A model generated the notes under the pieces. The model made no database searches. It was given only the letters and a program-made list of their open reading frames with translations, and had not been told where the DNA came from. This document shows, in pieces, positions 35,485 through 37,923 of a DNA stretch of 64,000 nt. A program made the translations under genes and the position numbers. Position 1 is the stretch's first letter. Every line of letters begins with the position of its first letter. Source of the DNA: a virus. Its lineage: Duplodnaviria > Heunggongvirae > Uroviricota > Caudoviricetes. Location of the stretch: IMG/VR virus record IMGVR_UViG_2721755651_000007; one strand, 5' to 3'.

Positions 35485-36030
35485 TCATACTGTTGCAGTG
35501 CCACAACGAGCCCCCCACGTCACCGTATCGCCGGGGTGGTAAGTTTCGCCGATTCTGAACACACCACGGTAGAGCATCACCGGCAGGGAAAATGTTTTTT
35601 CCGTACGCTGGCCACTGCTCTGCCGGACCACCACAGAGAACGACCGTTCACCCGTCATGCTGACGTCAATATCCGCCACCCCGTCAACCAGGCATTCCCA
35701 TCCCCGCATCCCGTACGTTTTTTCATACGCCCGCCAGAGTCCACCCTGGTGTGTGGCATACGAGCCCCGGGGAAAGGATTTTTGATCGTCAATGGCGGGG
35801 AGTATTTCCAGTGCCGTGGCATCACGCCCGTCCTGCGGAGCCGGCAGGGCACTCACCGCCTCCAGAACCGCCTTCTGCAGAACATCCGGATCGTAGTCAC
35901 GACCATCACGCGGAACAGGAATATGGCTTACCGCCTCCTTCACCATCTGTTCAAGCATCGGATGCACATCATCCGGAGTGATACTTTTACCGTCTGCCGG
36001 TACCGGTATTTTCGCGACCGCATCATTCAC
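35485..36030 (-). CDS. repeat-containing protein in frame with portal gene (probable detached portal C-terminal extension)
   Basis: begins with the same 54-aa repeat unit as the portal 3' end; same reading frame as portal, separated by a single TGA. Confidence 0.45.
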   Translation of the reverse strand: MNDAVAKIPVPADGKSITPDDVHPMLEQMVKEAVSHIPVPRDGRDYDPDVLQKAVLEAVSALPAPQDGRDATALEILPAIDDQKSFPRGSYATHQGGLWRAYEKTYGMRGWECLVDGVADIDVSMTGERSFSVVVRQSSGQRTEKTFSLPVMLYRGVFRIGETYHPGDTVTWGARCGTATV

Positions 36031-36084
36031 CTTCGCAGCTCGGATCGTGTCAGAATCACATTCTACCGCTCTAGCAACATCGGA

Positions 36085-37923
36085 TCACCGGATATCTTTA
36101 CGTCGCGACCGTACGCGACGCACATTCACCGCCTTCTGCAGAACATCCGGATCGTAGTCACGACCGTCGCGCGGAACAGGAATATGGCTCACTGCCTCTT
36201 TCACCATCTGCTCAAGCATCGGACGCACATCATCCGGGGTGATACTTTTGCCGTCTGCCGGTACCGGAATATTCGCAACCGCATCATTCACCGCCTTCTG
36301 CAGAACATCCGGATCGTAGTCACGACCGTCGCGCGGAACAGGAATATGGCTCACTGCCTCTTTCACCATCTGCTCAAGCATCGGACGCACATCATCACCC
36401 GTCACGCACTTCTGTAATACCACAGACTGAGAAGCCAGTTTTTCTTCAAACGTTTGTGCCTGCGCGGCTATTTTCTCCTCAAATGTGCGCTGTAAATCCG
36501 CCAGCACTGTGGAAAATTCTTCTCCCAGTGCACGAATAATGGACAGTTCCCGTTCCGTCATTTTCTCAGTATCCCCCCTGAACATCGCTTTCACCGCATC
36601 ATGCTCTGTTTCACTGATTGCCTTATTACCGTCAGATGCGCCGTCAGGCAGCTGTGATGAAACTGTTTTCCCGGCAGACGCGAACGGATCCTCACGGGCA
36701 TCACGACGGGACAGCGCCTCCAGACTGTAGTTCTGCTGCTGAAGATACAGTGCATCACCGCCGGCCAGGGGCGGCAGGTTCTCCCGTTTACGGGCCTCAT
36801 TGGGCGTGAGAAGCGTATTTTTCACCGCATCCCCCAGCGTTTTCATGCGCCGCTCACTGTCCATTCTCAGCAGCGTGGTGACATCAAATTCTGTACTCTC
36901 GTTTTCCCCCGTTTCCAGCGCCTCATCCAGTAACAGTTCAATGGACTCAATCAGCGTCTGCAGGCACTGGGAATAATACTGCTGCTCCAGCGCCTCCACG
37001 TTGTCACTGGAAGGCGGTTGTCCCACGCCAATCTTGTAGGCCGGGACACGGAACACCGAACAGACAATTTCAGCGGTCATCTTCAGTTGTTCCACCGTCT
37101 GCGCATCCACCGGTGAAAACGTCGTGGGGTTGTATTTTGCCCCGTTGCTCAGAATGGCCGTTTTCCCCGCATTTTCGCCTGTATACCCGCTGTCCCAGTT
37201 GCTCTTCAGTTTTTTCGCATTTTCTTCCGTAATACTGCCGGGGATCTCAATCACCCCGGACGGCCTGCCGCCATTTCTGAAAAAAGACGTCGAATTTTCC
37301 TGAATATGATGCCCCTGCGTGGCCGCCAGCCCGGCGGCATACACCGGCGGCAATCCTATAAGCGGATGAAAAAAACAGTTAAACCGGTCGTGGATCACTT
37401 CCCGGGCAGGCACCGTCACCGCCTCCGTGATCCCGCAGTTCCGGTCCGGCGTGATGCGGTAGAACACCTCGCCGTCATCCGCCACCAGAGGTTCAACCCG
37501 GCTCCAGTCCAGAATACGCAGTTCTTTGATCTGCCCCCGGGCATTACGGATTTTCAGCACCACCGTATTGCCATGACGCAGTTTGGCGTTCAGCCACAGT
37601 TCAAAAAACTGGATGCGGTTCTGCTGGGCGTTGGGACGACGACAGAGGCGGGCAATATCCCCCCGGCGCGTTTCCCTGCGTATCCCATGCGCATCCGTCT
37701 GCATAAGACGCAGCCGCATTTTGGCGATATCCTGGGATATCAGCGAAATACATGCAAACACCGCATGAAAGGAGAGGACGGCTTCAGGATCGGCTTTCAC
37801 GCCCTGCTGCCAGGCGCCGGAAAAGGGCTCAGCCACCGCCTGAAACAGGCTGGTCCAGCCCGCCTCTCTTACGTCACGTCCTGATTTCTGGTTTTTTCGG
37901 GTTCGCCGTAAAAGGTTCCACAT
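36085..37923 (-). CDS. portal protein with C-terminal 54-aa tandem repeats
   Basis: portal-like core (..ILSNGAKYNPTTFSPVDAQTVEQLKMTAEIVCSVFRVPAYKIG..); repeats of IPVP.DG....PDDVRPMLEQMVKEAVSH. Confidence 0.65.
   Translation of the reverse strand: MWNLLRRTRKNQKSGRDVREAGWTSLFQAVAEPFSGAWQQGVKADPEAVLSFHAVFACISLISQDIAKMRLRLMQTDAHGIRRETRRGDIARLCRRPNAQQNRIQFFELWLNAKLRHGNTVVLKIRNARGQIKELRILDWSRVEPLVADDGEVFYRITPDRNCGITEAVTVPAREVIHDRFNCFFHPLIGLPPVYAAGLAATQGHHIQENSTSFFRNGGRPSGVIEIPGSITEENAKKLKSNWDSGYTGENAGKTAILSNGAKYNPTTFSPVDAQTVEQLKMTAEIVCSVFRVPAYKIGVGQPPSSDNVEALEQQYYSQCLQTLIESIELLLDEALETGENESTEFDVTTLLRMDSERRMKTLGDAVKNTLLTPNEARKRENLPPLAGGDALYLQQQNYSLEALSRRDAREDPFASAGKTVSSQLPDGASDGNKAISETEHDAVKAMFRGDTEKMTERELSIIRALGEEFSTVLADLQRTFEEKIAAQAQTFEEKLASQSVVLQKCVTGDDVRPMLEQMVKEAVSHIPVPRDGRDYDPDVLQKAVNDAVANIPVPADGKSITPDDVRPMLEQMVKEAVSHIPVPRDGRDYDPDVLQKAVNVRRVRSRRKDIR

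Follow-up and report, generated by a model that had tools for sequence, protein, structure and literature searches.

The 99-nt segment that interrupts the portal gene of a lambdoid prophage in E. coli O157 strain 319 was found to have, almost certainly, a technical cause, and not to reflect gene splitting, recombination or recoding. The real gene, already annotated, is an unbroken HK97-type portal gene that carries a 54-aa repeat in 1 to 4 copies. The segment itself is a thinned-out repeat unit, with a resemblance far beyond chance. Comparisons with related genomes, and with a second prophage in the same chromosome, indicate that it is very probably a consensus or polishing artefact, generated from reads of two repeat-number alleles, and not sequence present in the cell.

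Organization of the portal gene and its repeat array

The window, that is, the whole stretch of 64,000 nt that was analysed, derives from strain 319 (NZ_CP018241.1), which it matches at 100% over the region 35400-36700. The portal-region genes all lie on the minus strand. The features listed in the preliminary description (ORFs, repeats, 99-nt segment, hairpin and TGA) were all recovered on that strand with unchanged coordinates (Table 1). The ORF that appears to follow the portal ORF lies in frame with it, at an offset of 600 nt, and what looks like its GTG "start" encodes the Val of ...QKAVN at a unit junction. A 165-nt repeat has copies at 35867, 36128 and 36290, with spacings of 261 and 162 nt. 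Tandem Repeats Finder reported no repeats on the array, because the array is interrupted and holds only ~2.7 intact copies; a separate repeat search recovered the 162-nt period.

Table 1. Features at the portal repeat array and related stretches (window coordinates unless indicated otherwise).
Feature	Position	Strand	Basis or remark
Portal gene, whole	35402..37923	-	PGAP: single pseudogene, "phage portal protein; frameshifted; internal stop"
Apparent portal ORF, 612 aa	36085..37923	-	Terminates at the TGA of the 99-nt segment
Apparent "next ORF", 181 aa	35485..36030	-	Really the continuation of the portal frame
First, partial repeat unit	36285..36396	-	Last 112 nt of the 162-nt unit
Full 162-nt (54-aa) unit, "u1" type	36123..36284	-	Repeat search and alignment
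99-nt segment	36024..36122	-	u0-type unit without 63 nt
Last full 162-nt unit, "u0" type	35862..36023	-	Repeat search and alignment
Hairpin CGTCGCG-ACCGTA-CGCGACG, 7-bp stem	36101..36120	-	Absent from the intact unit
In-frame TGA	36085..36087	-	Product of dropped bases
Unit junction CATTCACC (= GGTGAATG on the coding strand)	36024-36031 and 36123-36130		Sequence
G6 run (C6 on the + strand)	35511..35516	-	Full-length homologues have G7
Paralogous stretch	29922-43125 of the window, versus about 1,556,400-1,571,100 of NZ_CP018241.1		

Residues 54-382 of the gene product matched the Pfam family PF04860 (Phage_portal) with E = 5.9e-81 and 272.6 bits, against a cut-off of 39.1, and PHROG 2271 ("portal protein") spans the C-terminal extension. 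This extension consists of three parts: a heptad-like stretch, the 54-aa repeats (...IPVPADGKSITPDDVRPMLEQMVKEAVSHIPVPRDGRDYDPDVLQKAVN...), and a C-terminal domain of ~150 aa. A sequence search of the extension against solved structures returned nothing significant (best E = 0.79), and a sub-threshold match to CBM_5_12 (E = 0.0069) was observed at the restored C-terminus.

The portal gene resides in a lambdoid prophage, whose other genes include paa, dicB and nleG7. Its head module is arranged in the order terminase, capsid, portal, head-tail connector and head closure; the portal gene is flanked by the capsid gene, with a small hypothetical ORF between the two, and by the head-tail connector gene. 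The terminase-capsid-portal order, which results from the placement of the 645-aa capsid ORF (38135-40072) upstream of the portal gene, is unusual when compared with that of HK97. Annotations differ for this ORF: "phage major capsid protein" in strain 319, but "phage prohead protease" for its counterpart at the same position in Sakai, ECs_1543; the ORF is suspected to encode a putative fusion of prohead protease and capsid protein.

Other annotated pseudogenes occur in the same prophage, at 24743-28221, 28484-28846, 54897-55430 and 22059-22412, and comprise a frameshifted tail tip protein J gene, a truncated minor tail protein L gene, a fimbrial protein gene with both a frameshift and a stop, and an NleG effector gene with an internal stop. 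Of these, J, L and NleG lie within 8358-33000, and at least the ones in the tail region are shared, rather than private errors, because that region is identical in 180-PT54. The strain 319 prophage that carries the portal gene is probably defective. At 8001-8357, the best match in every other genome recovered by a 25-kb search begins at query base 358; the first 357 bases are therefore joined differently in strain 319, and this stretch may represent a prophage-prophage junction or a rearrangement breakpoint.

Continuity of the portal gene in related genomes

In all relatives examined across the junction (644-PT8, 180-PT54, FDAARGOS_293, NCCP 13892, Sakai Sp6 and YYZ-2008), the frame was found to be read straight through. 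The two best-matching loci in other genomes lack the 99 nt, and their frame is unbroken (...LQKAVN-DAVAKIPVP...). None of the relatives examined has a separate gene that starts at this point, and PGAP treats the whole of the locus in strain 319 as a single pseudogene. These findings bear out the earlier proposal that the two ORFs belong to one long portal gene, for which a continuous ORF in related prophages had been named as the check; an uninterrupted frame was present in all six.

Removal of the 99 nt from the strain 319 sequence yields exactly the orthologous gene of 180-PT54 and 644-PT8 (2423 nt), and replacement of the 99 nt by a full unit yields exactly the gene region of Sakai Sp6 ECs_1544 (NP_309571.1; 2585 nt). 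The damaged unit thus lies "halfway" between two natural alleles. At least 245 E. coli records showed 99% identity or above to the array reconstructed with the full unit, and at least 40 matched it at 100% over the full length, among them the second prophage of strain 319. The natural number of units is 1 in phage Lys8385Vzw, 2 in one FDAARGOS_293 prophage, 3 in 644-PT8 and 180-PT54, and 4 in Sakai Sp6, NCCP 13892 and phage YYZ-2008.

The relationship extends well beyond the gene. Relative to strain 319, the orthologous prophage is shorter by exactly 99 nt in 644-PT8 and longer by exactly 63 nt in NCCP 13892/13894, as compared over 23 kb with 100.0% identity in both cases, and the adjoining 24.6 kb has a single gap-free match of 100.0% in 180-PT54. 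Since the flanks are 100.0% identical in relatives, the damaged unit is the only private difference of strain 319 in ~48 kb. Both 180-PT54 and 644-PT8 are other UK O157 isolates, and 180-PT54 was analysed in the same study as strain 319.

Frameshifts at G-tracts in the portal gene

The downstream ORF ends at 35485 because the gene carries six G residues, and not seven, at 35511-35516. As a result of this G6 run, the last 39 aa give way to 9 aa followed by a stop (…TWGARCGTATV*). With the G7 run of phages YYZ-2008, Lys8385Vzw and 569R3, the frame continues to …WGGSLWHCNSMTGDKPGE…GGGK*, overlapping the start of the head-tail connector gene. The PGAP flag "frameshifted" refers to this run. The G6 form is also found in Sakai Sp6, which belongs to a Sanger-era genome, as well as in 644-PT8, 180-PT54 and NCCP 13892; because several relatives carry it, G6 is a shared real allele, and not an error of strain 319. 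The long form could in principle be recovered by a hypothetical -1 slip on these G residues.

A second G-tract is located at 36573-36578 of the window (C6 on the + strand), and is G5 instead of G6 in Lys8385Vzw (L009 2736-2739). With G5, the Lys8385Vzw gene is broken in two, namely a 454-aa portal and, joined to it by an ATGA overlap, a 245-aa ORF beginning with MTERELS. PHROG 1289 ("portal protein", a 331-position profile) begins at the same Met as this 245-aa ORF, indicating that split portal forms, which may be real or sequencing errors, recur in phage records.

Nature of the 99-nt segment

The 99-nt segment was found to be a perfect ordered subsequence of the u0-type 162-nt unit, with a longest common subsequence of 99/99. 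Deletions account for the whole difference: 63 bases are missing, in ~34 runs that are each 1-7 nt long, and no base has been substituted or inserted. Shuffled 99-mers reached a mean longest common subsequence of 79.5 (sd 1.9; maximum 86 in 2000 shuffles), and the other 99-mers of the window reach 86 at most against the repeat unit. Random dropout of 63 of 162 positions predicts 38.9 +/- 3.0 runs, which is close to the number seen. When the 99 nt were aligned locally to the unit in the ordinary way, only short gapped matches resulted, and the relation was exposed only by the longest-common-subsequence test. A literal shuffle of the unit was also considered, since the 99-mer has the same base composition as one 99-nt window of the unit; this was rejected, the order of the bases being fully preserved. 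The description of the segment as a scrambled repeat unit must thus be amended: the order is intact, and bases are merely missing. The segment occurs in 1 of 5426 complete E. coli genomes, that of strain 319 alone, and a sensitive blastn search (E <= 10) of 28 Gb of E. coli genomes recovered no other copy.

The TGA and the hairpin, like the GGTGAATG on either side, are mere by-products, and the small features do not go beyond chance. The RNA fold of the 99 nt has a z-score of -0.94 relative to dinucleotide shuffles, 37 of 200 of which fold equally well, and the 64-kb window contains 124 perfect 7-bp hairpins with loops of 3-8 nt. A stop is to be expected in 33 unselected codons, as simple arithmetic gives (61/64)^33, or ~0.2, for its absence. 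The GGTGAATG "boundaries" are an ordinary repeat-unit junction (...QKAVN|DAV...).

Origin of the segment

The chromosome of strain 319 carries a second lambdoid (Sp6-like) prophage, ~218 kb away, in which the array has four units and is clean. The two prophages are exactly identical over runs of 6110 and 7003 nt that flank the array on its two sides. Apart from the array, ~13.1 kb of head and tail genes are exactly identical, inside ~14.7 kb at 99.6-99.8% identity, and the 4964-nt locus around the portal gene of the paralogue is identical to Sakai Sp6 over that stretch. An identical prophage stretch of this length is a substrate for both homologous recombination and assembly errors. The strain 319 genome was determined from PacBio RS II P5-C3 reads with PBcR self-correction, assembled by Celera Assembler using the longest 20x of corrected reads, and then polished with Quiver; short-read polishing is not described (PMC5359411). 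Another paper citing the accession was found to hold no independent data for strain 319.

The preferred reading is that the consensus procedure was confronted with two alleles at once. Reads shorter than the identical stretch would be assignable to neither prophage copy, and, because reads inside that stretch cannot be placed, the consensus step would have been fed a mixture of "unit present" and "unit absent" reads. The consensus would then have stripped 63 of the 162 bases one by one and stopped part-way, either during PBcR self-correction or during Quiver polishing. Quiver edits single bases and can stall. Against this reading, we know of no documented case with exactly such a 39% dropout signature. 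That 63 is a multiple of three would be luck. For the true gene we infer a continuous portal ORF, more likely with three units than with four.

Several findings support the artefact explanation. The segment is private to one assembly, and the orthologues in 180-PT54 and 644-PT8 are without it; it is an error-transformed repeat unit, a four-unit paralogue lies in an exact repeat, and the reads were error-prone and lacked independent polishing. A further point against it is that the four-unit paralogue is clean in the same assembly, which means that cross-talk would not have been symmetrical. The array troubles other assemblies, too. In phage vB_EcoS-569R3, 62 Ns lie inside the array (locus L010 2672-2733) and the record gives the portal as a pair of ORFs, each named "portal protein B". 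Among the 120 matches listed in a protein search, the majority are entries named "phage portal protein, partial", on short E. coli contigs of ~1.6-3 kb.

The same artefact would also result if the mixture came from the culture, in which unequal recombination had produced cells with three units and cells with four. Arrays of three units (180-PT54 and 644-PT8) and of four (NCCP 13892) are indeed both seen at the orthologous position in very close relatives, and phages and prophages as a whole carry between 1 and 4 copies; however, the 13-kb identical paralogue with the other unit count already supplies a mixture, and a mixed culture is therefore considered unlikely. Quite improbable is the wider proposition that the mixture reflects real, frequent switching of repeat number in culture, which, together with the two frame-toggling G-tracts, would make the portal extension a contingency-like, rapidly variable locus of Stx-type prophages, or else that the 99 nt are real. 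The related suggestion that recombination within the array split the gene was not supported, as unequal recombination yields gain or loss of whole units and not ~34 scattered deletions of 1-7 nt. The lack of substitutions and the kilobases of perfect flanking identity likewise disagree with it, and the pattern fits a PacBio-only consensus error.

That the 99 nt are real in themselves is very improbable. Many small deletions would then have accumulated in one unit, cutting the portal to 612 aa and stranding a 181-aa C-terminal fragment. The segment is indeed present in the deposited record, and the prophage, with its further pseudogenes (J, L, fimbrial and NleG), may be decaying. Such a history would nevertheless call for ~34 independent micro-deletions and no substitution within 162 nt, amid ~48 kb without a private change; a mutational process that gives this pattern is not known, and the segment is absent from all other genomes searched (1/5426).

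Programmed recoding, by readthrough of the TGA or by a hop from the first GTG-AAT-G to the second over the 99 nt, would restore a three-unit portal, and the identical 8-nt ends, the hairpin near the 5' end and the in-frame stop are the features that would call it to mind. It is scarcely credible, since a segment found in a single genome of the 5426 shows no conservation and relatives encode the product directly. The fold is no better than that of shuffles, the stop is not part of the hairpin and is found 36 nt beyond the junction, and the matching ends are the unit junction. The readthrough or bypass that had been raised as a remote alternative falls with these observations, both hairpin and stop stemming only from dropped bases. 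A MITE-like mobile insertion, suggested by the 8-bp direct repeat at both ends as a target-site duplication, has a negligible probability and was rejected, given the lack of any further copy in the E. coli genomes searched, the lack of terminal inverted repeats, a content that is wholly a subsequence of the local repeat unit, and a "duplication" that is the unit junction.

Implications

NZ_CP018241.1 almost certainly carries a 99-nt consensus error, which makes a continuous portal frame look like an internal-stop pseudogene. It could mislead prophage typing, pseudogene counts and the search for recoding signals when O157 genomes are studied. A perfect subsequence of the neighbouring unit, with no substitutions and private to one long-read-only assembly, offers a rapid means of recognising artefacts of this class. 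Biologically, nothing new is added, as the portal gene and its repeat-number variation are already in databases.

Comparison with known systems

The closest counterparts of the strain 319 portal gene are Sakai Sp6 ECs_1544 and phage YYZ-2008 gp54 (YP_002274190.1), the latter being the intact full-length form of 861 aa. Both occupy the same slot between the capsid and head-tail connector genes, and share the 54-aa repeats and the C-terminal domain. The damaged unit is the only difference between these portals and that of strain 319, the G run aside, for which strain 319 resembles Sp6 (G6) and differs from YYZ-2008 (G7). The real variation at this array is a repeat-number polymorphism of the VNTR type, in which whole 162-nt (54-aa) units, from 1 to 4, are gained or lost, always in frame. 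The 99-nt segment differs in that it is not a whole-unit change, and it is thus not a product of that process.

A superficial likeness exists to the gene 60 of phage T4, which is decoded by translational bypass over a 50-nt gap. In both cases, matched flanks surround a stop- and hairpin-bearing gap in a phage gene. Here, however, the gap is 99 nt rather than 50, it shows no conservation, its ends are explained by the repeat structure, and the stop is neither next to the take-off site nor in the hairpin.

The segment also compares with the consensus errors that arise in long-read-only assemblies where paralogous or collapsed repeats differ by an indel. Whereas long-read consensus errors are usually isolated homopolymer indels, a whole 162-nt unit would be affected here, with a dropout of 39%. 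In the remaining respects the two agree: the changes are likewise private to one PacBio-only assembly, consist of pure deletions, and lie inside a 13-kb repeat whose copies differ in unit number.
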